Below the pieces are notes generated by a model. That model was given only the letters and a program-made list of their open reading frames with translations. It searched no databases and was not told where the DNA came from. The translations under genes and the position numbers were made by a program. 64,000 nt of DNA from a virus: positions 83,744-147,743 of IMG/VR virus record IMGVR_UViG_3300024348_000005; one strand, 5' to 3'. Numbering within the stretch: the first letter of the stretch is position 1; every line of letters begins with the position of its first letter. Positions 22,964-56,934 of this stretch are shown here, in pieces.

Positions 22964-24421
22964 ATGTCAGAACAATTAAGGGAGTGGAGAGATAAAAACC
23001 TGAATTCAATAAGTTGTAGCTTCTGTGCAGCTAAGTGGTACAACGCAAGTTTACACTTAGGTCATGGTTTTACAAACTCGTGTCACTTACCATTACCACA
23101 CCCAATTGATTTAGAAGAAATTAAAACAAATCCTTCCGCACTTCACAATACAAAACATAAAAAAGAAATGCGTCGTATGATGTTGACGGGAGTGAAACCT
23201 GCTGAATGTTCATACTGTTGGAAGATTGAAGATATTGGTCGTGGTAATATTTCCGACCGAGTTTATAAAAGTCAAATCTACAAAGAGGAAGATATTGAAG
23301 CACTTAAACACATTCCTTGGGACCAAGACATTCCCTTGAAAACTGTTGAGGTTAGTTTTGACCGTATCTGTAACTTCGCATGTACATATTGTAACTCAGG
23401 TTATAGTACAACTTGGGGTAAAGATATTAAAAACAATGGACCTTATCAGAAATTTAAAACGACCAGTGCTGGTGCATATTATGCGGATGGTTCTTGGTCT
23501 GAAACTTATGGTAAGTACGCTGGTGATAATCCATATGTTAACGCATTTTTAGAATGGTGGCCCGAATTATCACAAACATTGGAAGAGATAAGAATTACGG
23601 GTGGAGAACCATCTCAGAGTCATAATTTTTGGGCTTTCATGGAAACAATGAAACAATACCCATCACCTAATTTGAGACTCGCAATCAACTCTAATTTAGG
23701 TTTAAATCAAGCAACGTTAGATAGGTTAGTTAATATAACACACGAAGTTAAGGTTAAAGAATTTGACATTTACACAAGTTGTGAGGCGTACGGCGAACAA
23801 GCGGAGTATATTCGTGACGGTTTGAAGTACGATTTATGGAGAGAAAATTTAATAAAGATTATTGAGAACGCGAACATTAGACAAGTTGTTATCATGATGA
23901 CAATTAATAGTTTATGTTTGTTTAGTATTACAGAATTTTTAGATGATATGTTAAAACTTAAAAAACAATACGGTACACATAAACCAATTGTTGATTTTAA
24001 TATTTTAAGATGGCCTTCATTTATGTCACCATTAACTTTACCAAATGATATCAAGTACGAATTACACGGTAAATTATCAATGTGGTGGAGAAAACACAAA
24101 AAGAATCCATTAATTAATATGCACGAAGGTGCACAAATCGAAAGATTGATTGATTACATTGAGGTAGTTAACAGAGGACATAATACTACTGAAATGGATA
24201 TGGAACTACAATTCCACGATTTCAAAAGTTTCTACACACAGTACGATGTTCGTAGAAATAAAAGTTTTGTTGACACATTTCCAGAATTAGCTGATTGGTA
24301 TAATGGTCTTAAAATTGACAACACAATACCTGACGTTAAAATAACGGATGGTAAAATAACACATTTTGAGTCTGGAATTTATGAATCAGATGTTCAAAAT
24401 TATAACAAATCAATAGAATAA
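22964..24421 (+). CDS. Twitch-type radical SAM enzyme
   Basis: CAAKW...NSCHLP...CSYCW; CNFACTYC; ITGGEP. Confidence 0.88.
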   Translation: MSEQLREWRDKNLNSISCSFCAAKWYNASLHLGHGFTNSCHLPLPHPIDLEEIKTNPSALHNTKHKKEMRRMMLTGVKPAECSYCWKIEDIGRGNISDRVYKSQIYKEEDIEALKHIPWDQDIPLKTVEVSFDRICNFACTYCNSGYSTTWGKDIKNNGPYQKFKTTSAGAYYADGSWSETYGKYAGDNPYVNAFLEWWPELSQTLEEIRITGGEPSQSHNFWAFMETMKQYPSPNLRLAINSNLGLNQATLDRLVNITHEVKVKEFDIYTSCEAYGEQAEYIRDGLKYDLWRENLIKIIENANIRQVVIMMTINSLCLFSITEFLDDMLKLKKQYGTHKPIVDFNILRWPSFMSPLTLPNDIKYELHGKLSMWWRKHKKNPLINMHEGAQIERLIDYIEVVNRGHNTTEMDMELQFHDFKSFYTQYDVRRNKSFVDTFPELADWYNGLKIDNTIPDVKITDGKITHFESGIYESDVQNYNKSIE

Positions 24422-25704
24422 TGTATTTCGCTTTCGAAGATAAATTTAATTTACAGAATTTTATTAATTGTAAGGACATTAATAAATCCACAATACCAAG
24501 ATTTAGTACATCCCCTCTACTAACATCATCACAAATATATTTCCAACAAAGTGACCCAAATGAAATGGTTTATTTTAATTCAACGGATAATATTGACGGT
24601 GATTATATTATAAGTGCAAGTGTTAATCATAGTCCAGATGATTGGACTGGACACGACCCAAGAGTTGAAACATTTTTTAGTCATTTAAATGAAAAATATT
24701 TAAAAGATTTAAGAGACAACAAGGCTTACTTGATGTTAGATCAAAGTTTAGAAGGATATCAAACGCCATGGTTGTGGGATTATTTTCATCAACAATGTGC
24801 CGAATGGAAAGTGTCACCAATACGTATGATTTACGTTACTGGTAATATGATTGCAGATGATGTGTACGAAAAATGGGCTAATGACAATAACGTTATTGAA
24901 CGAATGAAAGTTATTCCGTACGCACATTTTGAATTAGATATGGGAATGACAGCACACGGTAGATCAAAAGGTGAAAAGTCTAACCCATTACCAAGTTTCC
25001 AAGAACATATTGATTATAAAACAAAAAATGAAGAAAAAATAAAATCATTTGCGTGTTTAAACAAAAGAATAAGACCACATCGTGTATGGTTTTATAATTA
25101 CCTATATCATTCGGGTTTATTAAATAAAGGTTTAGTAAGTATGAATGAATTTCCTAAACATTTGTATAATTGGGAAGGTAAAATGATATATGATAATGAG
25201 TTAGATGAAATAACAAAAAATTTACCATTACAGGTTTATAACAAACCTAACGATGAATTAGATGATAGCTTTTATATCAATAGATTTAATGATGAAATTT
25301 GTTTAGACACATTCGTAACCGTTATTAGTGAAGCACATTGTGGAGATGGAGACCAAACCATGTTTTTAAGTGAGAAAACCTTTAAACTTATTGCCTGCCG
25401 ACATCCTTTTATGTTTTTAGGTAATAAAGATAGTTTAAAAATGATGAGGAAGATTGGTTATAAAACATTTGATGGATTTATTGACGAGGGTTACGACTCA
25501 TTACCAACACACGAAAGATTAGAATATTTAATTGAATCAATTAGAAAAGTTGATAATATTGAAAATAAAATTGAATGGTTTAAATCAATGGAGGATATTA
25601 TTGAACACAACTATAACACACTTATTAGTAAACTTTTTGCACCTCCTGAGGCGTATAATGAACTTAAAAGATACTGTATCAAAACAACAAAAAAATTATT
25701 GTAA
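24421..25704 (+). CDS. Putative glycosyltransferase-like protein (N-x-R-x-x-HR / [ST]EKxFK family)
   Basis: CLNKRIRPHR, VISE, LSEKTFK, GYKTF; four paralogs elsewhere in the window. Confidence 0.55.
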   Translation: MYFAFEDKFNLQNFINCKDINKSTIPRFSTSPLLTSSQIYFQQSDPNEMVYFNSTDNIDGDYIISASVNHSPDDWTGHDPRVETFFSHLNEKYLKDLRDNKAYLMLDQSLEGYQTPWLWDYFHQQCAEWKVSPIRMIYVTGNMIADDVYEKWANDNNVIERMKVIPYAHFELDMGMTAHGRSKGEKSNPLPSFQEHIDYKTKNEEKIKSFACLNKRIRPHRVWFYNYLYHSGLLNKGLVSMNEFPKHLYNWEGKMIYDNELDEITKNLPLQVYNKPNDELDDSFYINRFNDEICLDTFVTVISEAHCGDGDQTMFLSEKTFKLIACRHPFMFLGNKDSLKMMRKIGYKTFDGFIDEGYDSLPTHERLEYLIESIRKVDNIENKIEWFKSMEDIIEHNYNTLISKLFAPPEAYNELKRYCIKTTKKLL

Positions 25705-26639
25705 TGTTAGATTGGTATAAAGATGAGTTGATAGAACGTAAAAAAAATAAATCCAAAATATTGATTGGTTTAGGTGATAGTTTCACTCAGGGTCAGGGTG
25801 CTTGCTCAATAGAATTATGGGAAAAATACAATTGGGATTTAGGCACATCGTCTGAAATTGATAATCATGATTTGTTAAAATCATCTTACGAAAATTCTTG
25901 GGTAAACAAGATTTGTGAAAATTATCTAACCGAGTACACACCAATTAATTTAGGAATGACAGGTAGAGGTAATCGAGCCGCAGTTAAAGAATTATATTTA
26001 CATCCAGATTTACAATTGGAAAAATCTAACGAAATAATCGTTGTTTTCATGTTAACCGGAATGGAGAGGTTTGATTTTATTGATAAAGAATTTTTTGAAC
26101 ATGTTCATTATACGACTATGTGGCCAAATAATAATACTAAATTATCATCCGGTTATTTTGAAGAAATATGGAGTGATAAGTTTGGTGTGATTGAATCACT
26201 ATTATCAATTGCCGAAGTTAAAATGTGGTGTAAATTAAATAATGCTAAATTATTATTAATCAGTGCCTTTTCTCCCAATTTTAATAGAGATTACTTTTTT
26301 AATACTTTAATTGGTGATGGTAAAGAAAATAAAAACTATCTATATAAAAACAAAGACTACACAAATCTATTACTTAATAGTAATATTGATTGGGATAATT
26401 TTATTAGACCAAATAATTTTAATTGTGTAACGGATTTTTTATGTCATTTAGAAAATAGAGAAGATTTAATAAATTCATCGTCACCACACCATTACTATGA
26501 ATATGCTTATAGTTTGGATAAAATGAGTCCAAATGGATATATCACAAAATGTGCTCACCCATCGAATAAGGGTCACGAAAAAATTGCGGAATTAATACAC
26601 AATGAAATAATAAAAAATAAAAAAGACAAGTTAATTTAA
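25704..26639 (+). CDS. SGNH/GDSL-like hydrolase or acyltransferase
   Basis: GDSFTQG, NLG..G.GN, C-terminal AHPSNKGH. Confidence 0.7.
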   Translation: MLDWYKDELIERKKNKSKILIGLGDSFTQGQGACSIELWEKYNWDLGTSSEIDNHDLLKSSYENSWVNKICENYLTEYTPINLGMTGRGNRAAVKELYLHPDLQLEKSNEIIVVFMLTGMERFDFIDKEFFEHVHYTTMWPNNNTKLSSGYFEEIWSDKFGVIESLLSIAEVKMWCKLNNAKLLLISAFSPNFNRDYFFNTLIGDGKENKNYLYKNKDYTNLLLNSNIDWDNFIRPNNFNCVTDFLCHLENREDLINSSSPHHYYEYAYSLDKMSPNGYITKCAHPSNKGHEKIAELIHNEIIKNKKDKLI

Positions 26640-27058: not shown

Positions 27059-27603
27059 TTAATATAATACAATTCAGGATATTCAACAATTACGTGTATA
27101 CCACCTTCGGTATATGCGTTTTTGTATATTGTTTCAATATTATTCCATTCCTTTAAATCCCAAAATTTAATATTAGGACACATTGATTTAAACTCATCAA
27201 AATAATTTCCTCTATGTTGATGCCCCGGGTCTAATGGTTTATCTGACCCCTTACCCAAACGAATAATCATATTAGGTTTCCATTCGTCCTTACTCATCAA
27301 TCCAATCTTATCAACATGGTTTACTAATTGATTTGTTGCACAGATTATGAAATCCCAACGAGGGTAGAAAGTTATTACAAATTTACCGGCCATAGCTATA
27401 CCTAAACTCATACCCATTTGAGACTCTTCCATTACAGGTAATTCAATTAATTTATTCTTAGGTACATCACCAATTGTTGTACTCATAGGATTACCGTGCC
27501 AAAGGACCTGTTGACCTATAAAAACGGTGTTCTCTTGTTGACCAAGGAAAGTCATTGAATTAGTTAGTGCGTCTTTGTATGGGGTGTATTCTGGTTGACT
27601 CAT
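27055..27603 (-). CDS. ThDP enzyme E1-beta/transketolase pyrimidine-binding domain (short)
   Basis: VFIGQ, IELPVMEESQMGMSLGIAMAG, NQLVNH, PGHQH. Confidence 0.8.
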   Translation of the reverse strand: MSQPEYTPYKDALTNSMTFLGQQENTVFIGQQVLWHGNPMSTTIGDVPKNKLIELPVMEESQMGMSLGIAMAGKFVITFYPRWDFIICATNQLVNHVDKIGLMSKDEWKPNMIIRLGKGSDKPLDPGHQHRGNYFDEFKSMCPNIKFWDLKEWNNIETIYKNAYTEGGIHVIVEYPELYYIN

Positions 27604-28427
27604 TTTAAATCTTTTTGTATGTTATTTATTATATTTTCTGCAATTACTTGGTGACACAATTTAGATGGGTGGTGATCTGACGGTGGGGTCCCTACAAAGT
27701 TATCAAAATCTGATTCAATAACCATGTTTTTATGTTCCCTTTGTAGACCTTCAATTGTTTTATATTCTTTATTTTTATATTTTAATTTAATAAATCTTTC
27801 ACTTAGGTATGGGTCTTTTAATATTGGGGATACCAATTCATTTTGCCAAGATAAAATTTTAACTTTAATACCTTTTTCTTCATAGAACATTACTTCATTT
27901 TTAAGTCGTAAAAATTGTTGTTCCACCATTGATTCATTACAATCATCAAAGGTCTGATTACTATCATAAAACCATTCTAAAAAATCTGGATATCGTTTTT
28001 CAATTTCAGAAAGATTTTGAAGGGGAATGTTTATAAATTTATTTGTGTCGTTTTTATCATAATAAAATTTATTTCTCCACATATGAGATAATTGTATTAT
28101 CATATAATCAAAATCGTGGTGATTAAATTTTTCATATGATATGTGTTCTGCCGTTTTACTCTTTTCCTCAAAAACAAATTTAAAGAATTGAAAAGTTTCA
28201 TCTTCTGACCCACCATTTACATTTTTAAATGCTTCAAATGTGTTGAAATGATTTGCAACCAATCTTGGGTAATATAGAGTTTCTCTAAATTTAATATGTG
28301 ACAATTTTAAATCTTCACCATTAAATACATAATGACTTTTAGGATATTTTAAATCTACCAGATCAGAATAAAAATATAAACCCTGCCCCCAAGTAAATGA
28401 ACATCCGCCAAATATTATTCCTTTCAT
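27600..28427 (-). CDS. SGNH-like protein
   Basis: GCSFTWGQG, NGGS, DHHP. Confidence 0.7.
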   Translation of the reverse strand: MKGIIFGGCSFTWGQGLYFYSDLVDLKYPKSHYVFNGEDLKLSHIKFRETLYYPRLVANHFNTFEAFKNVNGGSEDETFQFFKFVFEEKSKTAEHISYEKFNHHDFDYMIIQLSHMWRNKFYYDKNDTNKFINIPLQNLSEIEKRYPDFLEWFYDSNQTFDDCNESMVEQQFLRLKNEVMFYEEKGIKVKILSWQNELVSPILKDPYLSERFIKLKYKNKEYKTIEGLQREHKNMVIESDFDNFVGTPPSDHHPSKLCHQVIAENIINNIQKDLK

Positions 28428-29260
28428 ATTAAATCCTTTTCTATGTTTTTTATTATATTTTCAGCAATAACTTGATGACATAATTTTGATGGATGATGAT
28501 CTAATGGTGGATTATTCCCAAAACTATCAAAATCTGTTTTAATTACCATGTTTTTATTATTTTCTTGTAAATCCTTTATTGAAGAATAGGATACCCCATT
28601 ATAATTTAAATCTATAAATCTTATACTCAAAAAATCATCATTTTTTAAATAATTAACAATATCATTTTCCCAAGATAATATTTTTGTTTTAATACCCTTT
28701 TCTTCATAGAACATTAGTTCTTTTTTTAATCTAATGTACTGGTTTTCAATTTGTATTTTCTCCCATTCATTAAACGTATAATCGTTAGAATCAAACCACT
28801 CAAAGAACTTAACATTTTTTTCGTTTCTATTTTCTAATATAGGAGCAACATTCGTTTTATAATTAATACCCCCCAATTGAAAATGAAAATCATTTCTAAA
28901 TATGTGAGATATTTGAACTATCATATAATCAAAATCCACATAATCGTATTTTTTTAACATCAAATATTGATGTATATCTCGACCACCCAATAAATTAGGA
29001 ACTAACGAGTTTAGAAAAAAATCAAACGTTTTATCTTCCGACCCACCATTATCTTTTTTGGTCACCTCAAATGTATTGAAATGATTTGCAACCAATCTTG
29101 GATAGTATAATGTGTTTTTAAATTTTATTTGAGCGTCTGTTATTTCTTTTTGATTAAATACATATTCACTTTCAGGATATTTTAAATCCACCAAATCAGA
29201 ATAAAAATATAACCCTTGTCCCCATGTAAAAGAACATCCACCAAATATTATTCCTTTCAT
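28424..29260 (-). CDS. SGNH-like protein (tandem paralog of 27600)
   Basis: First 29 aa identical to 27600; DHHPSKLCHQVIAENII shared. Confidence 0.7.
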   Translation of the reverse strand: MKGIIFGGCSFTWGQGLYFYSDLVDLKYPESEYVFNQKEITDAQIKFKNTLYYPRLVANHFNTFEVTKKDNGGSEDKTFDFFLNSLVPNLLGGRDIHQYLMLKKYDYVDFDYMIVQISHIFRNDFHFQLGGINYKTNVAPILENRNEKNVKFFEWFDSNDYTFNEWEKIQIENQYIRLKKELMFYEEKGIKTKILSWENDIVNYLKNDDFLSIRFIDLNYNGVSYSSIKDLQENNKNMVIKTDFDSFGNNPPLDHHPSKLCHQVIAENIIKNIEKDLI

Positions 29261-30108
29261 ATTAAACTATTACTTGTTAAATTATTAATTATTGATTTAG
29301 CAATTATTTGATGGCACTCTTTAGACGGGTGAACATCGAAAACATTACGATTTTTATTTTTTCTAAAATCACCCTCAATGGTCATATCGTCATCTGATTT
29401 CATTAAACTCATTATTGTCCCGAACTCCTTATTATTATTTTTTATTTTTATTACCTTATCTTTAAAAAATGTGTCATCTTTTAAACAATAAAGTACATCA
29501 CCAAACCAAGAAATTATCTTAACATCAATTCCTTTTTTATTATAAAAAATAACCTTTTCCTTTAATCTTTTATTTTGTTTAATTAAATGCTGTTCCTGAA
29601 TATCATCAACGGTATAATTATGTAAATTACAATATTCATCAAACTCTTTACCACCGACAATATCGTCATCGATTCCGTTATATAGATGTGCATTTAATAT
29701 TTTTGTTTTATATGACACACCATTTAATTCAAATTCAAAATAACTTCTATATGGATTTGTTAATTGGATAATCATATGACTAAAGTCTTGATATGAAAAT
29801 TTACGTTCAACGTTAAATATATGATTGAAAAAATCAAATGTTTCATCTTCAGAACCACCATTACCTAATAATTGACCAACATCATCTTTACACACCTCGA
29901 ATGTATTTAAACCGTTAGCGACTAATCTTGGGAACCTTAATGAGTTTTTATGTCTAATCATCGCTTCAGTTATTACTCTTGAATTAAAAGAATGATTTTC
30001 CGATGTTGCTGGTAAATTTGAAAGGTTAGAGTAATGATACAACCCTTGCCCCCAAGTAAACGAACACCCACCAAATAATATACCTTTAATAGTTTGTCTC
30101 ATCCTCAC
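29257..30108 (-). CDS. SGNH-like protein (third paralog)
   Basis: GCSFTWGQG, NGGSED, DVHP. Confidence 0.7.
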   Translation of the reverse strand: MRMRQTIKGILFGGCSFTWGQGLYHYSNLSNLPATSENHSFNSRVITEAMIRHKNSLRFPRLVANGLNTFEVCKDDVGQLLGNGGSEDETFDFFNHIFNVERKFSYQDFSHMIIQLTNPYRSYFEFELNGVSYKTKILNAHLYNGIDDDIVGGKEFDEYCNLHNYTVDDIQEQHLIKQNKRLKEKVIFYNKKGIDVKIISWFGDVLYCLKDDTFFKDKVIKIKNNNKEFGTIMSLMKSDDDMTIEGDFRKNKNRNVFDVHPSKECHQIIAKSIINNLTSNSLI

Positions 30109-30718: not shown

Positions 30719-31695
30719 TAGTTATTAAATTCGTTTTTATGTTCCATATACCACACATACGCATTTTTTAACCCAACTTCTAATGGGGTTTTAGATTCCC
30801 AACCTAAGTTCTCTTTGATTTTATTTGAATCTATTCTACGTGTTGGAATCATAGATGGTTTACCCTGAATATATTCTGTAGGAGCATTATAGTCCACAAT
30901 ATGTTTCATTAAACCTAAAACATCATTTACAGAGTGTACTTCATTTGACCCTACGTTATATACTTGAAACATTTCCGTTTCTTTTTCCATAACAACCTGT
31001 AGAGCCTCTACGAAATCTTCAACGTAAAGTAAATCACGCAGTTCGCTACCATCTCCCCATACAGGAATTGGATTCATTTTATCAGCAACTTTACGAATTG
31101 TTGCTGGTGTTACGTGACATTTATTAAAATCGTACTTATCGTGTGGGCCAAACAAATTTGCTGGTCTGATAACCGTACATTTCATTGTTCGTGGTAAGTA
31201 TTTTGCATAAAGCTCACATTGAACCTCAGCATAACGTTTCATCCAACCTACTGGAAAATAAACGGGGTAAGGTTCATCAAATAAGAAATCAGTTTCGACA
31301 ACGGGTTCATCACCCTTTGGTGGATACACTGTGTTTGATGATATAAATATGTAATGTTCCACACCATTTCTCCATGACGCGTCAATTAAAAAATTATTCA
31401 TTGCCACGTTAGGTGTTACATGTGCTAAAGGGTCCACAACCGTATCTACAGCATTTGATGTTGAGGCAGCAGCGTGAAACACAACACTTACTCCTTCAGT
31501 TGCCTCTCGACAACCTTGATATGTTTGTAAATCATGTTGAGTGTATTCTACACCTTCATGTTTTGTTCTAACACCTCTTTTATGTAGGTTTACTCTGATT
31601 TCAGTATAACCTTCTTTTATTAATCTTGCGGTTAAATTTTGACCAACTAATCCCGAACCACCGGTGATTAATATTTTTGAATTTTTATTTATCAT
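30718..31695 (-). CDS. NAD-dependent epimerase/reductase, GDP-fucose-synthase-like
   Basis: TGGSGLVG, RPANLFGPHD, WGDGSELRDLLYVED; YxxxK position reads VGWMK. Confidence 0.8.
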   Translation of the reverse strand: MINKNSKILITGGSGLVGQNLTARLIKEGYTEIRVNLHKRGVRTKHEGVEYTQHDLQTYQGCREATEGVSVVFHAAASTSNAVDTVVDPLAHVTPNVAMNNFLIDASWRNGVEHYIFISSNTVYPPKGDEPVVETDFLFDEPYPVYFPVGWMKRYAEVQCELYAKYLPRTMKCTVIRPANLFGPHDKYDFNKCHVTPATIRKVADKMNPIPVWGDGSELRDLLYVEDFVEALQVVMEKETEMFQVYNVGSNEVHSVNDVLGLMKHIVDYNAPTEYIQGKPSMIPTRRIDSNKIKENLGWESKTPLEVGLKNAYVWYMEHKNEFNN

Positions 31696-47488: not shown

Positions 47489-47517
47489 TTGACTTTTTGG
47501 TAAAAGTTAAGTATATT
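47489..47517 (+). promoter_or_regulatory. Sigma70-like promoter TTGACT-N17-TATATT
   Basis: Near-consensus -35 and 17-nt spacer, about 10 nt before ATG 47527. Confidence 0.65.
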
Positions 47518-47526
47518 AGTAGTATT

Positions 47527-47964: not shown

Positions 47965-48341
47965 GTAAAAAGTACGCAATGTATGTGGGGCGTTGGCAAA
48001 ATTGGCATAAGGGTCACGAATGGCTTATTAACCAACAATTAGAGAAAGGAAAAGACGTATGGGTTGCAATTAGAAACGTACCCACAGATGAAAATAACCC
48101 AAAAACCGCACAACAGGTAATGATGGATTTATCTGAGGAGACTTTCTTTAAAGAAAATTCACAAAGAATTAATATATCAATTATTCCTGATATTGAGAGT
48201 ATCAATTATGGTAGAGGGGTTGGGTATGATGTTATTTACCATGAACCACCTCCAGATGTTGCAGTTATTAGTGGTACAGCAATTAGAACCGGCCACATGA
48301 CACCTGATGGTGAAATTAAATATGACCAAACAAAAGGATAA
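47961..48341 (+). CDS. Minimal HxGH nucleotidyltransferase (candidate ATP sulfurylase)
   Basis: GRWQNWHKGH and ISGTAIR motifs; coupled to cysC. Confidence 0.65.
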   Translation: MSKKYAMYVGRWQNWHKGHEWLINQQLEKGKDVWVAIRNVPTDENNPKTAQQVMMDLSEETFFKENSQRINISIIPDIESINYGRGVGYDVIYHEPPPDVAVISGTAIRTGHMTPDGEIKYDQTKG

Positions 48342-48556
48342 TGATAGTAGAAAGAAAAAGACATATCGCCAAAACCGTCTCATATCGTATTGTAAGTACC
48401 CTTATTGGATTTGTTATAATGTGGTGGGTAAGCGGTTCAATAAAGGTTGGTGCCGCATTTGGGATAGCCGAATTAATATATAAACCCATCCAATATTATC
48501 TTCATGAAAGAATTTGGTATAAATGGATAAAATTTGGTCTAAAAGATAAAAAATAA
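48341..48556 (+). CDS. DUF2061-like small membrane protein
   Basis: RHIAKTVSYRI, hydrophobic segments, YYLHERIW. Confidence 0.75.
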   Translation: MIVERKRHIAKTVSYRIVSTLIGFVIMWWVSGSIKVGAAFGIAELIYKPIQYYLHERIWYKWIKFGLKDKK

Positions 48557-48582: not shown

Positions 48583-50079
48583 ATGAGAACAGTATTAATA
48601 GGTTCGGACTTTATGTACGATCAGGATGGTAATTTAAAACCCATTGAAATAAACACCGCAGTTGGTTGGGATAATGCATCTAAAGTTGAACATGATGTGG
48701 ATTCTTTGGATTTAACAAATTTATACCAATTTGTTACTGATAATAACTTCCAAAATATACATTATGTAGGTGATATACAATATTTCCATAAAACATTAGA
48801 AACACACTATACAGGAAGTTCCGTTACATATGAATACCACGCAATCGGTGGTTTGTCGATTACTATTCCATTTATAGAGGATAATGATGAAACATTGATT
48901 ATCAGAAGTGCATATGATACAACAGCGTTGGTAGATGATACCTATTGTAGAGATAAGGTTGAATTTATGAAACTTATCCAATCTCAATCATTCGGTTCAC
49001 AATTTGCTTACATAGATGAAAACAATACTTTAATTAATACCATAACAACAATACCAGATAATGGTGTACATCCGAATTTTATTCTAAAATCAAGGTATCC
49101 TGGTTATGATAAAGAGGTTTATCCTAAATTTTATAAAGTAACAACACAAGAAGAATTAGATGTGGTTTTAGAAAATGTAACATCTGATTACTTCTTAATG
49201 GAGAATTATTGTAACACTACTAATAATTACGAAGGACATATAAAGATAATTAGAAGTTTAAATATATTATATCCACCGACATTAGAATCAATTCAAATTG
49301 GACAATATACCAAATTGAATGAAAACGTATTTTTTTCTGAAGTAGAATATAACTCAGAAACCCATGAGATAAATTCAGAATATAGAGATAGTTACACAAC
49401 TAACACAAATGGTAGATGGCTACCTAAACTATTAGATACGGATATGGTCGAAATGGGCGATGGTACATTTAAAACTGCGTTAGATTTAAATGTTGATGAT
49501 GTAATTAAAACAATAGATATTCCAAATCCAAATGGTATTGATAATTCATCCTATGTTGGAAATTTTGGAATATCATACGAAACATTACTAAGTGGTACAA
49601 CGTATTCAACAAATAAAATTATTGCATTAAAGAGAGTTAATAAATTATCATATTTTTATCAATTAACTTTTGATGATGATAGTACTTGGGAGGATACCGG
49701 AGTTTCTTCGTATTTGATTGAAAGAAATAACGAAGTTCAATTTGAACATTTATTTGATGTGGTAAATGGAGATGTGGTTTTATTGTTAAACACAACGGAC
49801 GGGTTAATGGATTTTGTTAGAAAAACAATAGTGTCTGTTGTTCAAGTTAAAAAGGTATTTACCGGTTGGTTTATTTCAGTAGAAAGAGCACACTTATTTT
49901 TAACTAAGACCACATCAACAAATAACGAATCATTTGTTTCTATTGAACATAATGGACCAGCATGTCCAGTGGGATGTTGTTCCGCTTCATGTCCAACGTG
50001 TCCCAAATCCGAACCTCAATGCTCTGGTCCAGTATGGGCTCCAACATGTAATGGTTATTCGGGAATATGTTACTCATAA
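48583..50079 (+). CDS. Circularly permuted ATP-grasp-like / Hint domain / Cys-rich peptide fusion
   Basis: DFMYDQDGNLKPIEINT, NFILKS, FLMENY (CP ATP-grasp-like); Hint blocks ending IEHN; then GPACPVGCCSASCPTCPKSEPQCSGPVWAPTCNGYSGICYS. Confidence 0.7.
   Translation: MRTVLIGSDFMYDQDGNLKPIEINTAVGWDNASKVEHDVDSLDLTNLYQFVTDNNFQNIHYVGDIQYFHKTLETHYTGSSVTYEYHAIGGLSITIPFIEDNDETLIIRSAYDTTALVDDTYCRDKVEFMKLIQSQSFGSQFAYIDENNTLINTITTIPDNGVHPNFILKSRYPGYDKEVYPKFYKVTTQEELDVVLENVTSDYFLMENYCNTTNNYEGHIKIIRSLNILYPPTLESIQIGQYTKLNENVFFSEVEYNSETHEINSEYRDSYTTNTNGRWLPKLLDTDMVEMGDGTFKTALDLNVDDVIKTIDIPNPNGIDNSSYVGNFGISYETLLSGTTYSTNKIIALKRVNKLSYFYQLTFDDDSTWEDTGVSSYLIERNNEVQFEHLFDVVNGDVVLLLNTTDGLMDFVRKTIVSVVQVKKVFTGWFISVERAHLFLTKTTSTNNESFVSIEHNGPACPVGCCSASCPTCPKSEPQCSGPVWAPTCNGYSGICYS
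49426..49953 (+). other. Hint (intein-like) domain lacking the N-terminal nucleophile
   Basis: KLLDTDMVEMGDGTFKTALDLNVDD aligns to CFxxGTxVxMxDGxxKxIxDLxVGD with Cys1 replaced by Lys; LTFDDDSTWEDT; DVVNGD; ISVERAHLF...IEHN. Confidence 0.7.
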
Positions 50080-50100
50080 AATAATAAAAATTAAAATAAT

Positions 50101-50190
50101 ATGGCAACTATAATAACAAACACAGAAATCAACGTTCTAAATACAACTTTAACTACCATTGGTAATTTAATTGTAACCGCAAATAGTTAA
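50101..50190 (+). CDS. 29-aa Thr/Asn/Ile-rich peptide (not in ORF track)
   Basis: MATIITNTEINVLNTTLTTIGNLIVTANS; fills the intergenic gap after an A-rich leader. Confidence 0.55.
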   Translation: MATIITNTEINVLNTTLTTIGNLIVTANS

Positions 50191-50208
50191 CTCTAAAAAT
50201 AATAGGTT

Positions 50209-50739
50209 ATGGTTTATTTCATTCCCAATGTACTTTCAAAGGTGGAGTGTGAATTCTTGTCTAAACAATTTGATATTGAAAAAATAAATCACGCTTCTGG
50301 TGATAAAGTAGTAGATACAAATGCTTCCTTTGGGTTTAGACCTTCATATAATTTTGATAAATATTTAGATATTCTAAAACCAAAAGTATTAGAATTCAAT
50401 AATGAAATCGAACACTTAGATAATGTAAACACATATGTTAGAGAGTATTTCAATAGTGCATTTTTAACAAAACATATAGATAGAACAGATATAAGTGTAA
50501 CAATGTCAATATGTTTAGAGTCAACAATAAATAAAGAATGGCCGCTATTTGTAGAAATAGATGGTAAGGAATATTCACATCACACAAATGTGGGTGATGG
50601 AATAATATTATTTGATGCTGATAAAAACGTTCATTGGAGAAATCCTTTAGAATGTGACGAAACCCAAAGAGTATTACAATTTTTTCTACATTGGATGCCA
50701 ATTAATTATGTTGCAAAGAAAAATAAATCATTAATATAA
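50209..50739 (+). CDS. 2OG-Fe(II) oxygenase
   Basis: LTKHIDR, SVTMSICL, WPLF, HWR; ends KSLI. Confidence 0.8.
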   Translation: MVYFIPNVLSKVECEFLSKQFDIEKINHASGDKVVDTNASFGFRPSYNFDKYLDILKPKVLEFNNEIEHLDNVNTYVREYFNSAFLTKHIDRTDISVTMSICLESTINKEWPLFVEIDGKEYSHHTNVGDGIILFDADKNVHWRNPLECDETQRVLQFFLHWMPINYVAKKNKSLI

Positions 50740-51347
50740 TGTTAGATGCAATAAAATTTTCAGAAGAATTATCAATATATACCACAAAAATTAGTGATAT
50801 TGATAATGAACAACTTTCTAAAGATTTAGAATTGAATTGTAATATAAATAAAAACTTAATTAAGGGTGATAATATTCCGGGTATACAATCTGATATTATT
50901 ATAACTTCTAAAAATATCCAAGATTTAGAAATTAAAATTATAAAAATAATAAAAGATTTTTTAAAACTAAAGGATGATTATGTAATATATAAGTGGTATT
51001 GGACATACATTAGTGATTCTAATAATACACTATCAAAATATCATAACCATGTAACAAATTATAATATTGAATATTCAAGAGAAATTCCACAATGGTCATT
51101 AGTTTATTATGCAAGTTTCCCCAATAATTTGGAAGGGAATGATGGCATGTCATTATTCCAAACAAAATCAGGTGAAGAATTTTCAATATTACCCGAAGAA
51201 AGTCAGATAATAATATTTCCATCGGATGTACTACATAAACCCGGATTGAATAAAAATTCTACTAAAAAAAGAATAGTTTTTGCAGCTAACGTAGCAATTT
51301 TAGATACAAATAAAGAATATTCTAAAAAACAAAAATCATTAATATAA
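50739..51347 (+). CDS. 2OG-Fe(II) oxygenase-like protein (HxH type)
   Basis: YHNH, WSLVYY, IFPS.VLH, RIVFAAN; ends KSLI. Confidence 0.7.
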   Translation: MLDAIKFSEELSIYTTKISDIDNEQLSKDLELNCNINKNLIKGDNIPGIQSDIIITSKNIQDLEIKIIKIIKDFLKLKDDYVIYKWYWTYISDSNNTLSKYHNHVTNYNIEYSREIPQWSLVYYASFPNNLEGNDGMSLFQTKSGEEFSILPEESQIIIFPSDVLHKPGLNKNSTKKRIVFAANVAILDTNKEYSKKQKSLI

Positions 51348-51353
51348 AAAGTT

Positions 51354-51926
51354 ATGTCGTTTACATATAAATCTATATCAAATTTATTAACAAAAGAAGA
51401 ATGTAATTTAGTTCTAAATTTCACATTAGAAAATTTAATATTAAAACCTGCTGAAATTGTAGGAGATAATAATCACAATTACGATGCTAGAAAATCAAAT
51501 GTGGTGTTTTATCCATATTATCAAAAATTTTCATTTATTTTAGAAAAAATATCTAAATTATTAGATGAAAATATTTTAATAAAAGGATTTGACTTAGATT
51601 ACAAAAATAGTCAATTCCAATTCACAGAATATAAAATTGGGGATTACTTTGCGTGGCATAAAGATATTACAGGAAATGAAGTTACACAATATGATAGATA
51701 TTGTTCGTTAGTTATACAATTAAATGATGAATATGAAGATGGTGATTTAGAATTAAAATTATCGGATGATTCAATAATGAAAGTAGAAAAGGGAATAGGT
51801 AATACTATTGTTTTTTTATCAGATATTGAACACAGAGTAACTGGTGTTAAAAATGGTAATAGATATACATTAGTTAATTGGGTTGGTTTAAAAAAAACCA
51901 ATAATTATAAAAAAACACTATTATAA
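51354..51926 (+). CDS. 2OG-Fe(II) oxygenase, prolyl-4-hydroxylase/PKHD-like
   Basis: QFTEY, WHKD, YEDGDL, HRVT.V..G.RY.LV.W; ends KTLL. Confidence 0.85.
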   Translation: MSFTYKSISNLLTKEECNLVLNFTLENLILKPAEIVGDNNHNYDARKSNVVFYPYYQKFSFILEKISKLLDENILIKGFDLDYKNSQFQFTEYKIGDYFAWHKDITGNEVTQYDRYCSLVIQLNDEYEDGDLELKLSDDSIMKVEKGIGNTIVFLSDIEHRVTGVKNGNRYTLVNWVGLKKTNNYKKTLL

Positions 51927-51927
51927 T

Positions 51928-52224
51928 ATGATAGATTTCAAAGAAATTTCAACTGCGTGGTACAATACACTTATACATTCTAATGAATTAAAAAAATTAG
52001 CAGATAATAGGTTTGATATTTGTTTAGAATGCCCATCTAAGCAAGAAATGTTTAAAGGAAAGGAATGGTCCCTCAGATGTGGAGAATGTGGTTGCCCATT
52101 AAAAGGTAAAGTATATACCCCAAAAACATATTTAGATAAAAAGGGGTCGTGTCCATTAGGAAAATGGAAAGAAGTTGAAGATGAATATTTAAAAAGTTTT
52201 AAAAAATCTAAAACTATTATATAA
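51928..52224 (+). CDS. Small Cys-rich metal-binding protein (DUF6171-like)
   Basis: RFDICLECP...CGECGCPL..K...CPLGKW; ends KTII. Confidence 0.7.
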   Translation: MIDFKEISTAWYNTLIHSNELKKLADNRFDICLECPSKQEMFKGKEWSLRCGECGCPLKGKVYTPKTYLDKKGSCPLGKWKEVEDEYLKSFKKSKTII

Positions 52225-52226
52225 CA

Positions 52227-52907
52227 ATGTCCCATTTAATTAATAATGAACTTATTTGGGTTTCAATTCCAAAGTGCGCTAGTTACTCCATTGAAAGGTC
52301 ATTAAGAAACTCAAAATTAAATTTAGAATTAATTGAACCAAATGACAAAACACTTCATTTTCACATACCTCTAAATCAATGTTTAGAACGATGGGGCGAT
52401 AAAGAAACTGTTTGTATAACTCGTAATTGGTTATTTAGATGGTTAAGTGCCTTAAATTTTATTTGGGATAACATAGAATTTGAAAGCGAATATAATGCAA
52501 TTCGTAATTGGGAGGATGTTGATAATGAATATATCTATAAAACATTTGATACCGATTTTTTAAATAATTTACATTTGTTGAGTAATGATTATGATGGATT
52601 TAGGAAATGCTGGTTTAAACTGGTAAAAGAAAATTTTGAATGTGAATTACCAATTCGAGGTGCGGTTGACACTTTACTTTCTCAAAGATTTTACAAATCT
52701 AATAAAAAATGCACCTACGAATTTGATATTAGTGAGATTGATAAATTTATAGATTTTATAGAAGATAAGTTTGGTGAAAGATTGATTATAAATCACACAA
52801 ATAGAACATCTAAGAGACCAAATAAGATAATCGTAAATGATGAATTAAAATCATTTATTTGGGATAATTTCGAAAAAAGATTTGAAAAGGGAAATTATTT
52901 AATATAA
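52227..52907 (+). CDS. Sulfotransferase family 2-like protein
   Basis: WVSIPKCASYSI (5'-PSB loop), RN...RWLS (3'-PB); ends NYLI. Confidence 0.7.
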   Translation: MSHLINNELIWVSIPKCASYSIERSLRNSKLNLELIEPNDKTLHFHIPLNQCLERWGDKETVCITRNWLFRWLSALNFIWDNIEFESEYNAIRNWEDVDNEYIYKTFDTDFLNNLHLLSNDYDGFRKCWFKLVKENFECELPIRGAVDTLLSQRFYKSNKKCTYEFDISEIDKFIDFIEDKFGERLIINHTNRTSKRPNKIIVNDELKSFIWDNFEKRFEKGNYLI

Positions 52908-53638
52908 TGATAGTAGATAAAAAATTTATTTTTATAAGTCTACCAAGATGTGCATCAACATCATTTATGATTACGTGCCTTAAAAACAAAATACCAATAG
53001 AACATCTTAATTCAAATTTTGATAATCAGTTGATTAAGATAAATGAATGGGAAAAAATGAATAATGAAGAATTATCTGATAGTTTACTACACGCGCATGA
53101 GCCATTATATAAATTACAAGAGAAATTTGGGGTAACCAATCAAATTATTTCAATAAGAAGAAACAATTACGATAGATTTTTATCTTTATGGAAACATATC
53201 ATAGATGAATTATATAGAATCAAAAAACTTGATATTGCGGATATATTTTCAAAACTAACAACTAATCATATATTTGAAAATATTAAATCAAATGACATTT
53301 ATAATTCAGAAAATAGATATAAAGTTATTGATAATTTTTTAACTAAATTAGAAATTTCAAAAAAAGAATCTTATATCAAAAATATGTTAGATATATTATT
53401 TACACCAATAGTTGAACTCACAAATGGTAATCCAAATATTATTTGGTTTGATATTGATAATTTAGTGGAATTAGAAAATTGGGTATCAAAAAAATTAAAT
53501 AAGGATTTTAAAATGGAAAAAATAAACTCAAGTAAACAATTTGAGTGTGCAATAGAAATCAATGATGATTTTAAACAAAAATATGATAATCTTTATAAAG
53601 AATTCGAACAAAGAAAAATAAATAAAACATTAATTTAA
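52907..53638 (+). CDS. Sulfotransferase family 2-like protein
   Basis: FIFISLPRCASTS, RRNNYDRFLS; ends KTLI. Confidence 0.7.
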   Translation: MIVDKKFIFISLPRCASTSFMITCLKNKIPIEHLNSNFDNQLIKINEWEKMNNEELSDSLLHAHEPLYKLQEKFGVTNQIISIRRNNYDRFLSLWKHIIDELYRIKKLDIADIFSKLTTNHIFENIKSNDIYNSENRYKVIDNFLTKLEISKKESYIKNMLDILFTPIVELTNGNPNIIWFDIDNLVELENWVSKKLNKDFKMEKINSSKQFECAIEINDDFKQKYDNLYKEFEQRKINKTLI

Positions 53639-54109
53639 GTGGAAATTTATAAAAACATATTAACAAATGATTTTTGTGATACTTTAATTGAAAAAATTAA
53701 GAATCAATGTGTGTTAAGTGAATCACATAAAACAGATTGGTTTGTTTGGTTAATATGGGGCCAACAAGGTATTCAACTACTTGATAGAGAAAAGTGGAAT
53801 GAAGAAATTTATAATATGATAATAAATGAGTTGGATAAATGTAATTTTCCTAAACATAAAATAATGTGGTTACAAATGACGGAATACAAAGATGGTAGGT
53901 GGTTACGAAGACACATGGATGGTGCAGGAAACAAAACATCAATAATTTTGTTATCCAATGGGTTTGTAGGTGGAGATACCTATATAAATGATAGAGTTGT
54001 AAATTTAGAAAAAGGTGATGGTGTTGTATTTGCTGGCGGTCACCAATATCACGAAATAAAACCAGTAACGAAAGGAACACGATACGCATTAAATTTTTGG
54101 TTTCATTAA
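53639..54109 (+). CDS. 2OG-Fe(II) oxygenase, prolyl-4-hydroxylase-like
   Basis: HMD, FVGGDT, HEIKPVTKGTRY. Confidence 0.85.
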   Translation: MEIYKNILTNDFCDTLIEKIKNQCVLSESHKTDWFVWLIWGQQGIQLLDREKWNEEIYNMIINELDKCNFPKHKIMWLQMTEYKDGRWLRRHMDGAGNKTSIILLSNGFVGGDTYINDRVVNLEKGDGVVFAGGHQYHEIKPVTKGTRYALNFWFH

Positions 54110-54118
54110 TAATATATT

Positions 54119-55162
54119 ATGGTAGATTTAAAAAACTATACATGCAACGTACCATTCACCTCATTAGAAGTACATAATAATGTATGTTTTGTTTGTTGTC
54201 CATCTTGGTTACCCAATAAAGTAGAACTTAGTGAAATTCCACTAAAAGATGTTTTTAATAGTGAACCAATTATTGATATTAGAAATTCTATTTTAGATGG
54301 TTCATTTAAGTATTGTAGTAAAGAACTTTGTCCCTATTTAAGTAAATTGGTAAACTATGGCGTAACATCAGGACCTGTTACTTTAAACTCGGATTCAAAC
54401 ATTAATAGTCCGATTGTAGAAAATAATACACCTGATTATTTAGTAATGAATTTTGATAGGACTTGTAATTATAAATGTCCATCATGTAGAGTAGATTTGA
54501 TTGTTGAAGATAGTAAAGGTATAAGACGTGTTGAAAAAACGATTGAGGATATTGATAAATATTATTCACAGCATGTAAAAACATTATACATTACTGGCTC
54601 TGGCGACCCATTTGTATCTGTTGGATTCCGAAATTATTTAAGAAATTTTAATCCTAAAAAATATCCTAATTTAAAATCCATACATCTTCATACTAACGCA
54701 TCTATGTGGAATAAAGAAATGTGGGACAGTATGCCAAACGTACACAAATACGTTCATACTTGTGAAATTAGTATAGATGCGGGTACAAAAGATACTTACG
54801 AAAATAAAACAAGAATAGGTGGTAATTGGGATAACTTATTGGGTAATTTAAAATTTATTAACACCCTACCAAATATGAATGTAAAAACATCCTTCGTTGT
54901 ACAAGATACAAATTATACCGAAATGGAAACATTTTATAATTTGATGTATTCTATTTTTGATAAAAAGGTAAATGTATTTTTTGGTAAGATAACTAATTGG
55001 GGGACATTTTCAGAAGGTGAATTTAAATTAAAACAAGTGTGGGATATAGAACATCCAGAACACCAGTTATTTAAAAAAGAGTTTAATAAAATATGGAAAA
55101 ACACAAATCTATTTCACAATCTATATGAGTTTATTGATACTACAAATAAAACGTTAATATAA
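54119..55162 (+). CDS. Radical SAM enzyme with N-terminal auxiliary Cys cluster
   Basis: CNVPF..VCCP...CSKELCP; CNYKCPSC; GSGDPF; ends KTLI. Confidence 0.85.
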   Translation: MVDLKNYTCNVPFTSLEVHNNVCFVCCPSWLPNKVELSEIPLKDVFNSEPIIDIRNSILDGSFKYCSKELCPYLSKLVNYGVTSGPVTLNSDSNINSPIVENNTPDYLVMNFDRTCNYKCPSCRVDLIVEDSKGIRRVEKTIEDIDKYYSQHVKTLYITGSGDPFVSVGFRNYLRNFNPKKYPNLKSIHLHTNASMWNKEMWDSMPNVHKYVHTCEISIDAGTKDTYENKTRIGGNWDNLLGNLKFINTLPNMNVKTSFVVQDTNYTEMETFYNLMYSIFDKKVNVFFGKITNWGTFSEGEFKLKQVWDIEHPEHQLFKKEFNKIWKNTNLFHNLYEFIDTTNKTLI

Positions 55163-55659
55163 TGAAAATTTTATTAATTACTTTACCTAGAACCGGGTCA
55201 ACCTCATTATTAAAAAAAATATCCAAAGAACAAAAACTAAATTCAATAAGTGAACCATTCAACAATGTTAATGGTAATTCGGAAAAATACAAATATTATA
55301 ATTGGAAAAGTACAAACGATATATGTGTTAAAACACATATAAATCACAAAGACATACCATTTTATTTAGAGTTTATTAAATTTTTTGATGAAGTGATTTT
55401 ATTATCCAGAAAAGATTTAAACGCATGTGCAGAAAGTTTATCTTACGCAAACCATTTTCAAAGTTTTACGGAAAAATATAAATGGATTAAGACACCCAAT
55501 CTTAATGAAAATATTAAATTAGTAAAAGAATTTAATGAAGAATTAGAAAAACTATCCAAATTAACCAATATTAAAATTTCATATTATGAGGAATTGTTTG
55601 ATTCAGAATCGGAAGATAAATTAAGAAAAAATGATATTAAAAGAGAAAATCTTATTTAG
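55162..55659 (+). CDS. Sulfotransferase-like (P-loop) protein
   Basis: LPRTGSTSL, SEPF, VKTH, LSRKD....ES, YYEEL; ends ENLI. Confidence 0.65.
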   Translation: MKILLITLPRTGSTSLLKKISKEQKLNSISEPFNNVNGNSEKYKYYNWKSTNDICVKTHINHKDIPFYLEFIKFFDEVILLSRKDLNACAESLSYANHFQSFTEKYKWIKTPNLNENIKLVKEFNEELEKLSKLTNIKISYYEELFDSESEDKLRKNDIKRENLI

Positions 55660-56131
55660 TAAGGAGGAGTGTGAATCTATAATATCATATAACGACACAC
55701 ATATTACAAATTGGTTAATGGGAGATAGAAAATACAATTCACAACCAATTAATTATTCATTAGAAACCAAATGGTTATTTGATAAATTAAAAGAATTTGT
55801 TGAAGAAAATACTGATATTAAAATAAAGAAAATTAAAGAAACAATACATTTTCATAAATTTACAAAAGATGATTGGTTTGGAAAACATAACGATATTAGA
55901 GATAATAGATTATATGCTGTGGGAGTTTTATTAAACGATGAATTTGAAGGGGGTGATTTTAAATTATACAACCCAAATCAAATTATATTAGATAAAGTTA
56001 TTGGAAATACATATTTATTTGATGTAAGAATAGACCACGAAATAACACCAATTTTAGAAGGTGAACGATATTCTTTATTATGGTTTTTAGAAAATGAACA
56101 TATAAAAATAGAAACAAATAAATTAATATGA
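55631..56131 (+). CDS. 2OG-Fe(II) oxygenase
   Basis: HND, LNDEFEGGDF, HEITPILEGERY; ends NKLI. Confidence 0.85.
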   Translation: MILKEKILFSKEECESIISYNDTHITNWLMGDRKYNSQPINYSLETKWLFDKLKEFVEENTDIKIKKIKETIHFHKFTKDDWFGKHNDIRDNRLYAVGVLLNDEFEGGDFKLYNPNQIILDKVIGNTYLFDVRIDHEITPILEGERYSLLWFLENEHIKIETNKLI

Positions 56132-56934
56132 ACCCATTAGAATATTGGAATTCAGAAGGATTTGAAATTTCATCTTATATGTATTCATTAAGGGGAAGAG
56201 TAAATAAAACATACAGAACTTCCGGTAGTGATAATACCGAAAAATGTACCTACACCTATAATGAATTAGGATTTAGGGGTGATAGTATAAAAAAAGAAGG
56301 TTTTAAAGTCATGTCATTAGGATGTTCAAATACCGAAGGTGTTGGAGTAAATCATTATGAAACATGGCCATCTCAATTCACATCATTAATACCAAACGGT
56401 ATTAATATGAATTTTGGTACGGGGGGTAGAAGTAATGATTTCATTACTAGATGTCTATTAACATATTATGATATAATAAAACCTGATTTGGTATTAATAA
56501 TGTATACAGATCCATTTAGAAGAGAATTTTATACTAAAGATGGTGGGATAGAACCCTTTATGCCAACAGTATCTTGGGGATATTTGAAAGAAACAGATGA
56601 CGGTGTTAAAACACAAGAATATTTAACTTATTTACAAAATAATAACGAGGACATAATAAATTGGCATAAAAATCATTTATTAATAAAGTATTTTTTAGAA
56701 TCAAAAAAATGTAATTGGATATGGAATGGTTTTTTCAATATACCAAAAGATTGTAATGAATTTAATAGATTTGATGGCGATTACGATATGCCTTTTTTGG
56801 ATTTTGGAGTTGATGGGGTACATCCAGGTCCAAACCACAATAAAACATACGCTCATAAATTGTATAATTTCATATCAAAAAATTTCCCACATTACATATA
56901 TTACTTACCCAAAAATAAACAAAGTTTGATTTGA
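56128..56934 (+). CDS. SGNH-like protein
   Basis: YNELGFRG, LGCSNTEGVG, NFGTGGRSN, DGVHPG; ends QSLI. Confidence 0.7.
   Translation: MNPLEYWNSEGFEISSYMYSLRGRVNKTYRTSGSDNTEKCTYTYNELGFRGDSIKKEGFKVMSLGCSNTEGVGVNHYETWPSQFTSLIPNGINMNFGTGGRSNDFITRCLLTYYDIIKPDLVLIMYTDPFRREFYTKDGGIEPFMPTVSWGYLKETDDGVKTQEYLTYLQNNNEDIINWHKNHLLIKYFLESKKCNWIWNGFFNIPKDCNEFNRFDGDYDMPFLDFGVDGVHPGPNHNKTYAHKLYNFISKNFPHYIYYLPKNKQSLI

Follow-up and report, generated by a model that had tools for sequence, protein, structure and literature searches.

A common C-terminal tail on unrelated tailoring enzymes of an uncultured T4-like phage

Why do enzymes of unrelated fold, encoded side by side in a phage genome, end in nearly the same four amino acids? 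The question is raised by a DNA stretch of 64,000 nt (the window) from an uncultured giant T4-like phage (IMG/VR record IMGVR_UViG_3300024348_000005, positions 83,744–147,743). The window encodes collagen-like tail-fibre proteins and, between them, a modification-gene island of ∼45 kb. A first-pass annotation had listed 17 proteins of this island, described as coming from unrelated families, that carry a C-terminal tag of the form (K)-[ST]-L-I-COOH. We find that the tag is real, selected as a peptide, specific to one functional module and linked to the gene (48583–50079) for an ATP-grasp–Hint protein that is called the hub here. From these observations we infer, tentatively, that the tag binds a partner, and that this partner is the hub.

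Occurrence and conservation of the tag

Gene sets were produced with a crude caller of open reading frames (ORFs) that uses ATG starts and a minimum length of 60–70 amino acids (aa); the set for the window comprises 59 long, nonnested ORFs. Translation of these ORFs reproduced all of the C-terminal endings listed in the annotation, including the degenerate cases KSLIHKNE (33972) and KDLK (27600). The Leu codons at the tag vary as claimed (TTA, CTA, CTT and TTG are all seen), and the tag is kept both with the 29-nt overlap at 55659 and with the 32-nt gap after 56934. Seventeen of the 59 ORFs end in [LI][LI], 13 of them in LI, whereas ∼1.4 such endings are expected from the internal rate of this dipeptide (2.3%; binomial P = 2 × 10−14). 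The expectation is 2.8 if the terminal rate of 4.7% outside the island of a related genome, G001, is used instead (P = 1 × 10−9). This genome is one of 80 IMG/VR contigs that carry close relatives of the radical SAM gene of the window (54119). At 335,630 bp it is rated 100% complete, and it was fetched whole as a genome-wide background. A T4-type Gp23 capsid gene is present in G001; a search of the same genome for a capsid of nucleocytoplasmic large DNA viruses, run without a positive control, gave no match.

The tagged genes of the window and the genes that bear on their interpretation are as follows.

24421–25704, + strand: tagged, KKLL; paralog family A, function not known (translation, BLAST)
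25704–26639, + strand: tagged, DKLI; weak GDSL/SGNH match (translation, Pfam)
27600–28427, − strand: degenerate, KDLK; paralog of the 28424 and 29257 genes (translation, BLAST)
28424–29260, − strand: tagged, KDLI; paralog family B (translation, BLAST)
29257–30108, − strand: tagged, NSLI; paralog family B (translation, BLAST)
31692–33347, − strand: tagged, KQII; NAD epimerase/dehydratase fused to a 2-oxoglutarate (2OG)-Fe(II) oxygenase (Pfam)
33972–35681, − strand: degenerate, KSLI followed by HKNE; family A (translation, BLAST)
35693–36880, − strand: tagged, ESLI; family A (translation, BLAST)
40325–41623, + strand: tagged, ESLI; family A, viral hypothetical look-alikes only (BLAST, protein-atlas look-up)
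48583–50079, + strand: untagged hub, with glutathione-synthetase-like ATP-grasp domain, Hint domain and disordered Cys-rich peptide; candidate tag reader
50101–50190, + strand: conserved micro-ORF of 29 codons, located after the hub and before the tagged run (tblastn)
50209–50739, + strand: tagged, KSLI; function not known, tag in 23/23 locus orthologs
50739–51347, + strand: tagged, KSLI; weak 2OG oxygenase match (Pfam)
51354–51926, + strand: tagged, KTLL; 2OG-Fe(II) oxygenase with ∼12 extra C-terminal residues relative to cyanophage homologs
51928–52224, + strand: tagged, KTII; 98-aa Cys-rich protein, zinc-ribbon-like by sequence
52227–52907, + strand: tagged, NYLI; family D, function not known (translation, BLAST)
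52907–53638, + strand: tagged, KTLI; family D (translation, BLAST)
53639–54109, + strand: untagged within the run, FWFH; 2OG oxygenase that stops at the fold end (Pfam, alignment)
54119–55162, + strand: tagged, KTLI; radical SAM (Pfam)
55162–55659, + strand: tagged, ENLI; sulfotransferase-like P-loop fold, tail disordered in the model (AlphaFold model)
55631–56131, + strand: tagged, NKLI; 2OG-Fe(II) oxygenase (Pfam)
56128–56934, + strand: tagged, QSLI; clusters with 42182, 42898 and 43505

Some elements of the original description had to be loosened. The number of carriers stands, but they do not form 17 independent families, as BLAST sorts them into ∼12 groups in the window. It joins 24421, 35693 and 40325 (with 33972 and 39015), 28424 and 29257 (with 27600), 51354 and 55631 (with 53639), and 52227 and 52907. 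For most of the paralog pairs in the window, the BLAST alignment ends before the tail. The assertion that the carriers have unrelated folds is borne out for the 2OG oxygenase and radical SAM proteins (Pfam) and for the sulfotransferase-like P-loop protein, but the SGNH assignment comes from weak Pfam matches only. The proposed (K)-[ST] portion is also too strict. In 402 distinct tagged gene ends, from which both the consensus and the codon statistics were taken, position −3 is T, S, K or N and position −4 is K or N, giving [K/N]-[T/S/K/N]-[L/I]-[I/L]-COOH. Lys occupies −4 in 207 of these 402 ends, and positions −5 and −6 are rich in K, N, T and R. Near-tags with the endings LF, LM, FI and LV also occur. 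Judged by sequence, the L/I exchanges and near-tags point to a need for two hydrophobic residues at the free end, preceded by T/S/K/N and then K/N. The 33972 protein, in which four residues follow KSLI, is an exception to the extreme C-terminal position.

The tag is not distributed genome-wide. In G001, an [LI][LI] ending is found in 16 of 39 genes of the syntenic island but in only 17 of 364 genes elsewhere (Fisher P = 9 × 10−10). Among the outside cases of K/N-x-hydrophobic form, two are GDSL/SGNH-like enzymes, and two more, close to the right-hand end of the G001 record, gave no significant match in Pfam.

The tag could in principle be a nucleotide by-product of AT-rich stop/start coupling, or an inheritance from a few paralog families. 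Many junctions do read TTAATATAATG or ATATGA, several carriers are paralogs, and the last Ile is encoded by ATA more often than internal Ile (66% versus 46%), a mild shift that is expected from ATGA overlaps. However, Leu codon usage at −2 equals the background (TTA 71, TTG 13, CTT 5 and CTA 9% versus 67, 13, 9 and 8% internally), and the tag is seen at all junction types. Among G001 genes outside the island, the tag is found on none of the 46 whose stop and start overlap (−1 or −4) and on one of the 60 that have a 0- to 10-nt gap, whereas the tagged fractions inside the island are 5/10, 4/10 and 7/17 over the three junction classes. Among the related loci, whose orthologs are not independent counts, the tagged share is 20% for ATGA junctions, 13% for TAATG, 30% for gaps of 0–10 nt, 21% for gaps above 30 nt and 4% for convergent genes. 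At least 12 BLAST-unrelated groups are tagged in the window and at least 17 in the relatives, and L/I interchange and synonymous variation occur while the amino acids are conserved. The codon, junction, genome-wide and family predictions of both readings having failed, we reject them as extremely improbable.

Conservation of the ending is also evident within single families, and the tag is kept in orthologs. In divergent families, the entropy of the last two positions is 0.5–1.3 bits, compared with 2.5–3.3 bits for the preceding 20. The 55162 family is a clear example: The last two positions (0.7 and 1.3 bits) are the best conserved of a variable tail, and linker insertions of up to ∼20 residues lie ahead of the invariant ending. 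The AlphaFold model of the 55162 protein shows a confident sulfotransferase-like P-loop fold, but residues 146–165 have no secondary structure, and the per-residue confidence (pLDDT) of the last four is below 50. The tail is therefore kept by selection as a peptide. The earlier argument for protein-level selection over translation coupling agrees with codon usage, junction classes, the genome-wide null and ortholog conservation alike. Of the outcomes named in advance as refuting, neither a genome-wide tag frequency nor a loss of the tag in orthologs was observed.

The enzymes that carry the tail

The island encodes glycosyltransferases (GT7-LamG, GT2, GT4-FkbM and GT9), nucleotide-sugar enzymes, a split thiamine diphosphate enzyme, a carbamoyltransferase, an adenosine 5′-phosphosulfate (APS) kinase, radical SAM enzymes, many 2OG-Fe(II) oxygenases and several proteins of no known family. 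Tagging is bimodal among these and related proteins: BLAST yields 88 clusters that contain four or more distinct sequences, and the tagged share is at least 70% in 17 of them and at most 10% in 53. Tagged proteins include 2OG oxygenases, one radical SAM enzyme, sulfotransferase-like and SGNH-like proteins, the 98-aa Cys-rich protein and families A, B and D. The untagged ones include all nucleotide-sugar enzymes, glycosyltransferases and methyltransferases, the APS kinase operon, the fibres, the hub and two radical SAM enzymes that bear an extra N-terminal domain instead. Untagged radical SAM and 2OG enzymes of the island are encoded at 20114, 22964, 30086, 33344 and 53639. By this distribution, the tag labels a late-acting subset of the tailoring enzymes and not a genome region as such.

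A protein-atlas look-up for family A returned viral hypotheticals and a chance-level GT10 lead only. In a related locus, a tagged 146-aa protein (L062:6077–6517) has a borderline SET-domain match (E = 2 × 10−4), which hints that at least some tagged enzymes may act on protein lysines.

Comparison with homologs indicates that the tail is an add-on. Like the untagged paralog 53639, the 2OG oxygenases of cyanophages, of a Methylophilales phage and of a Xanthomonas phage stop just past the last strand, whereas the tagged proteins 51354 and 55631 are ∼12 residues longer. A search of public data found ∼1,800 relatives of the radical SAM enzyme. Among the close relatives listed, 120 of 120 have an [LI][LI] ending, and the tagged share of representatives (50% clustering) taken at increasing distance is 12/30, 3/30, 2/30, 1/30 and 3/30. 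Thus, as far as alignments can tell, the tail is an addition to enzymes whose distant homologs have no extension.

Among deposited phages, none resembles the window, no DNA match to 50209–56934 was found, and no homolog of the 54119 radical SAM protein was found at E = 10−10.

The hub gene and its surroundings

The hub model has a mean pLDDT of 82. A profile search against PDB sequences gave marginal matches only, and the identity of the protein came from a fold search. The N-terminal half is structurally like eukaryotic glutathione synthetases (ATP-grasp), the second half has a Hint/intein/bacterial intein-like (BIL) fold, and the last 40 residues are disordered in the model. Residues E22, N24, K169, R108 and R224 are invariant. 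In 32 hub relatives, the sequence is conserved up to an invariant His-Asn and then gives way to a hypervariable peptide of 25–49 residues with six or eight Cys. At least one Lys is present in all 32 peptides, and exactly one in 25 of them. The residue expected to open the Hint domain is not Cys, Ser or Thr. By sequence, the hub therefore seems limited to C-terminal cleavage, and it looks built to release or present a fast-evolving peptide of disulfide type.

Loci selected by the hub, and not by any tagged enzyme, reveal the same arrangement. Alignment of the hub retrieved 272 IMG/VR relatives, of which 80 were kept; 73 of these loci were new to the analysis. In the 73 loci, 407 of 707 genes within 7 kb downstream of the hub are tagged, compared with 107 of 595 upstream. 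In most loci the gene next to the hub on its downstream side already belongs to the tagged run, even where hub identity is as low as 42–50%. Conversely, in 21 kb of a related island fragment (L180), the radical SAM homolog is untagged and both K-x-[ST]-L-I endings and the hub are absent, which fits the co-occurrence of hub and tag but is a single case only. No hub homolog was found in deposited phages, and in 185,579 prokaryote species genomes the hub occurs only on one 2-kb contig of a metagenome-assembled genome.

A 912-aa hub variant (L062:3179–5917; also in L064 and L067) is 21% identical and consists of an ATP-grasp domain and four Hint units. A degenerate Hint that ends SHN is followed by three canonical Hint/BIL units with two-residue linkers; each canonical unit starts with Cys and ends with HN, and the protein ends His-Asn-Lys. 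Directly downstream of this variant, too, lies a tagged run.

Several further features of the surroundings deserve mention. The T/N/I-rich micro-ORF at 50101–50190 follows the hub directly in the best tblastn matches with 82–100% identity, a degree of conservation far above that of the peptide at the hub C-terminus. Immediately before the hub, a small untagged operon (47497–48556) encodes the APS kinase, a 126-aa protein of no known function and a DUF2061 protein. By its predicted activity, this operon fits a supply of 3′-phosphoadenosine 5′-phosphosulfate for the sulfotransferase-like tagged proteins. Seven + strand copies of TATTTATA occur in the window (1289, 3367, 9251, 39034, 47470, 48558 and 62504). 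They lie in short spacers 18–45 nt before the starts of 1340, 3410, 9294, 48583, 62532 and the first-pick 47497, except for the copy at 39034, which is just inside the TTG-called 39015 ORF. This sequence is a candidate promoter motif common to hub and fibre genes. The T4 late promoter TATAAATA, also considered, is not enriched in the window (12 found versus 15 expected).

The G+C content of the AT-rich window is 26–36% except in fibre genes. The three large fibre genes (1340–13037) have common modules of 58–70 residues with 61–77% identity, and their G+C content is 41–44% compared with ∼30% in the rest of the window. Two paralogs beside the fibre genes (13293–14000 and 14011–14739) end R-F-G-L. 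Five such paralogs, ending RFGL or RYGR, are present in G001; this is a second, family-internal C-terminal motif.

Possible partners of the tail

The annotation had noted a match to class I PDZ ligands, but this idea finds no phage-side support. Searches of G001 for PDZ_2, PDZ_6 and Peptidase_S41, in which controls were detected, found none of these domains, and searches for TPR_8 and TPR_16 in the same genome were likewise negative. All tags have a hydrophobic terminal residue, since they are defined by it, and the position that would be −2 in PDZ numbering is S or T in only 54% (219/402), the others having K, N or another residue. By primary structure, the tail conforms to none of the sorting signals compared here and is only a loose fit to a class I PDZ ligand.

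Of the three roles that had been suggested, namely docking, degradation and ATP-grasp substrate, all survive our analysis. The best fit is docking or an address function, given that tagging is specific to a single functional module and accompanies the ATP-grasp–Hint protein. Our tentative preference is therefore for a docking tag through which interchangeable tailoring enzymes are recruited to one partner, with the hub as the most likely candidate. The tail would be a short linear motif that terminates a flexible, basic or polar linker, appended by the phage lineage to unrelated enzymes: 2OG oxygenases, radical SAM, sulfotransferase-like, SGNH-like and SET-like proteins, and several of no known function. 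Through its free carboxylate and two aliphatic side chains, the motif would insert into a partner common to all carriers, and binding would bring interchangeable enzymes to one shared macromolecular substrate. The most likely partner would be the phage-only hub at the head of the tagged run, with its ATP-grasp ligase, Hint domain and hypervariable Cys-rich peptide.

Several observations weigh against this docking explanation. Searches of G001 found no canonical C-terminal-peptide reader (PDZ, S41 or TPR). In the window, seven tagged genes on both strands are separated from the hub by 7–24 kb. The neighbors of the 912-aa variant are tagged although this variant lacks a Cys-rich peptide, which weakens the picture of enzymes that dock to tailor the hub's own peptide. 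Tagged radical SAM homologs (42–45% identical) also occur as lone tagged genes at three loci without a hub match, where the DNA covered comprises flanks of up to 10 kb for L184, 10 kb upstream only for L188 and a 3-kb contig for L186. The L184 enzyme (10001–11050; also in L185 and L189–L195) is 43% identical to 54119, ends K-N-T-L-I and is flanked by a gp32-like and a RecA-like gene in a phage of another, marine type; none of its neighbors carries the tag. The tail is conserved within this lone clade. Either the hub need not be the reader, or a hub lies elsewhere in those genomes. Finally, no natural fusion of the hub with a tagged enzyme was found: Long radical SAM homologs have no hub domain, and a search for longer hub forms found none, although this is weak evidence.

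A first alternative is a degron, which would mark its carriers for an AAA+ protease, a Clp enzyme of phage or host, and so limit the amount or lifetime of cofactor-hungry enzymes. Lone tagged radical SAM genes in other phage types suit a general reader better than the hub. Parts for tag-directed proteolysis exist in G001, which carries its own transfer-messenger RNA (tmRNA; tag peptide ATSTVAVA), ClpP (194 bits) and a two-ring ClpC/ClpA-type ATPase without a Clp_N domain (L085:6275–6679, L091:12530–13204 and L086:9705–11714). In addition, basic and then aliphatic residues at a free, disordered C-terminus resemble ssrA and the ClpX C-motif-2 degron of MuA, which ends RRKKAI (PMC12723719), and the phage tag shares this sequence pattern. 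In contrast to such signals, however, the phage tag is confined to one enzyme module, not to a temporal class, and co-travels with the hub gene. Most G001 proteins are untagged, the phage tmRNA tag ends VAVA and not LI, and the Clp genes are known from the relative G001, not from the phage of the window itself. If the candidate promoter motif common to hub and fibre genes indicates late expression, timed turnover would be of little obvious value. We consider the degron rather unlikely overall; module specificity and hub linkage argue against a general one, whereas a pathway-specific degron may still fit. Distinctly unlikely is a role as acyl substrate, in which the ATP-grasp domain of the hub would activate the Ile or Leu carboxylate of the tag and ligate it to an amine, for example the Lys of the hub peptide, in a covalent conjugation. 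The structural match of the hub N-domain to eukaryotic glutathione synthetases, with its five invariant residues, speaks for such chemistry, and GshB and glutathionylspermidine synthetase are members of the ATP-grasp clade that activate the C-terminal carboxylate of a peptide. A Lys is present in every hub peptide and is single in most (25/32), and in the peptide-less 912-aa variant, which ends HN-K, Lys is all that remains. The tag must also be at the extreme C-terminus, with 33972 as the exception. Nevertheless, there is no sign of conjugation, nor an obvious reason why a dozen enzymes should receive a peptide; homologs that occur as lone tagged genes have no hub in the DNA fetched, and conservation at −3 and −4 and a basic linker are equally expected for docking. 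A full protein-conjugation system, in which the ATP-grasp domain would join the tag carboxylate to the hub-peptide lysine and the cleavage-only Hint domain would then free the peptide, is very unlikely; it would amount to ubiquitin- or Pup-like logic assembled from ATP-grasp and Hint parts.

The reader might instead belong to the host, as a chaperone, a cofactor- or metal-delivery factor or a membrane-proximal assembly site, and the link with the hub would then reflect a shared operon only. Many carriers are metallo- or cofactor proteins (radical SAM, 2OG/Fe and the Cys-rich zinc-ribbon-like protein), no reader domain was found in G001, and lone tagged homologs occur in other phage types. A parallel exists in the cytosolic iron-sulfur assembly (CIA) targeting complex, to which a C-terminal tripeptide, [LIM]-[DES]-[WF]-COO−, is necessary and sufficient to recruit clients (Marquez et al., PMC10245660). 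There, too, one machine serves diverse client enzymes, many of them Fe-S proteins as is the radical SAM enzyme here. However, the CIA system is eukaryotic, the phage consensus has no acidic residue at −2 or aromatic residue at −1, and many phage carriers are not Fe-S proteins. The sulfotransferase-like and SGNH-like carriers need no metal center, and the other radical SAM and 2OG enzymes of the island listed above are untagged. A host-read tag is thus quite improbable in our judgment.

How would a docking tag compare with established address signals? Peroxisomal targeting signal 1 (PTS1), S-K-L-COOH, is read by the TPR receptor Pex5, and KDEL and HDEL are retrieval signals; both belong to eukaryotic organelle systems. 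The phage tail resembles them as a peptide of three to four residues at the extreme C-terminus, on a flexible tail, that is common to related enzymes of unrelated folds. Recognition through the free carboxylate is a further likeness, one that is proposed for the phage tag. On the other hand, PTS1 requires [SAC]-[KRH]-[LM], and the phage ending, [T/S/K/N]-[L/I]-[I/L], has an aliphatic residue and not a basic one at −2. PTS1 also operates in a eukaryotic host with a TPR receptor, whereas the tail is found in a T4-like phage whose relative G001 shows no TPR_8 or TPR_16 match. PTS1 and KDEL serve organelles, and no compartment is known for the phage tag.

An organizational parallel is found in the pathways for ribosomally synthesized and post-translationally modified peptides (RiPPs). 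RiPP pathways use recognition of a leader peptide by a RiPP recognition element (RRE), and trans-acting enzymes of polyketide synthases and nonribosomal peptide synthetases use docking domains. As in RiPP clusters, unrelated tailoring enzymes accompany one peptide-bearing precursor, here the hub, in which a self-cleaving domain precedes the Cys-rich peptide and whose gene has radical SAM and oxygenase genes beside it. The genes also cluster with the precursor: Both in the window and in loci retrieved through the hub, the tagged run lies immediately downstream of it. Roles would be reversed, however: The recognition element would be on the enzymes, and the reader would be a "leader protein" of ∼460 residues. 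Pfam scans of all tagged proteins detected catalytic domains only and no PqqD/RRE family.

C-terminal tags on unrelated enzymes are textbook knowledge for eukaryotes (PTS1, KDEL and the CIA signal) and for bacterial proteolysis (ssrA). We know of no pathway-wide C-terminal tag on a viral enzyme set, and a literature search found no paper that describes the present tag or another pathway-wide one on viral enzymes. The tail is thus a known kind of element, a C-terminal address tag, in a new setting, where it is abundant, conserved and undescribed. The system is common, with ∼1,800 radical SAM relatives in public data and 272 hub relatives in IMG/VR, and it is tractable with peptides and recombinant proteins. 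If docking to a substrate-bearing hub is true, it would represent a new organization of peptide or protein tailoring, in which the recognition element resides on the enzymes and not on the leader. Docking would also offer a transferable element of four residues by which any chosen enzyme could be brought to a scaffold, and it would explain how cassettes of small enzymes are swapped freely between phages.

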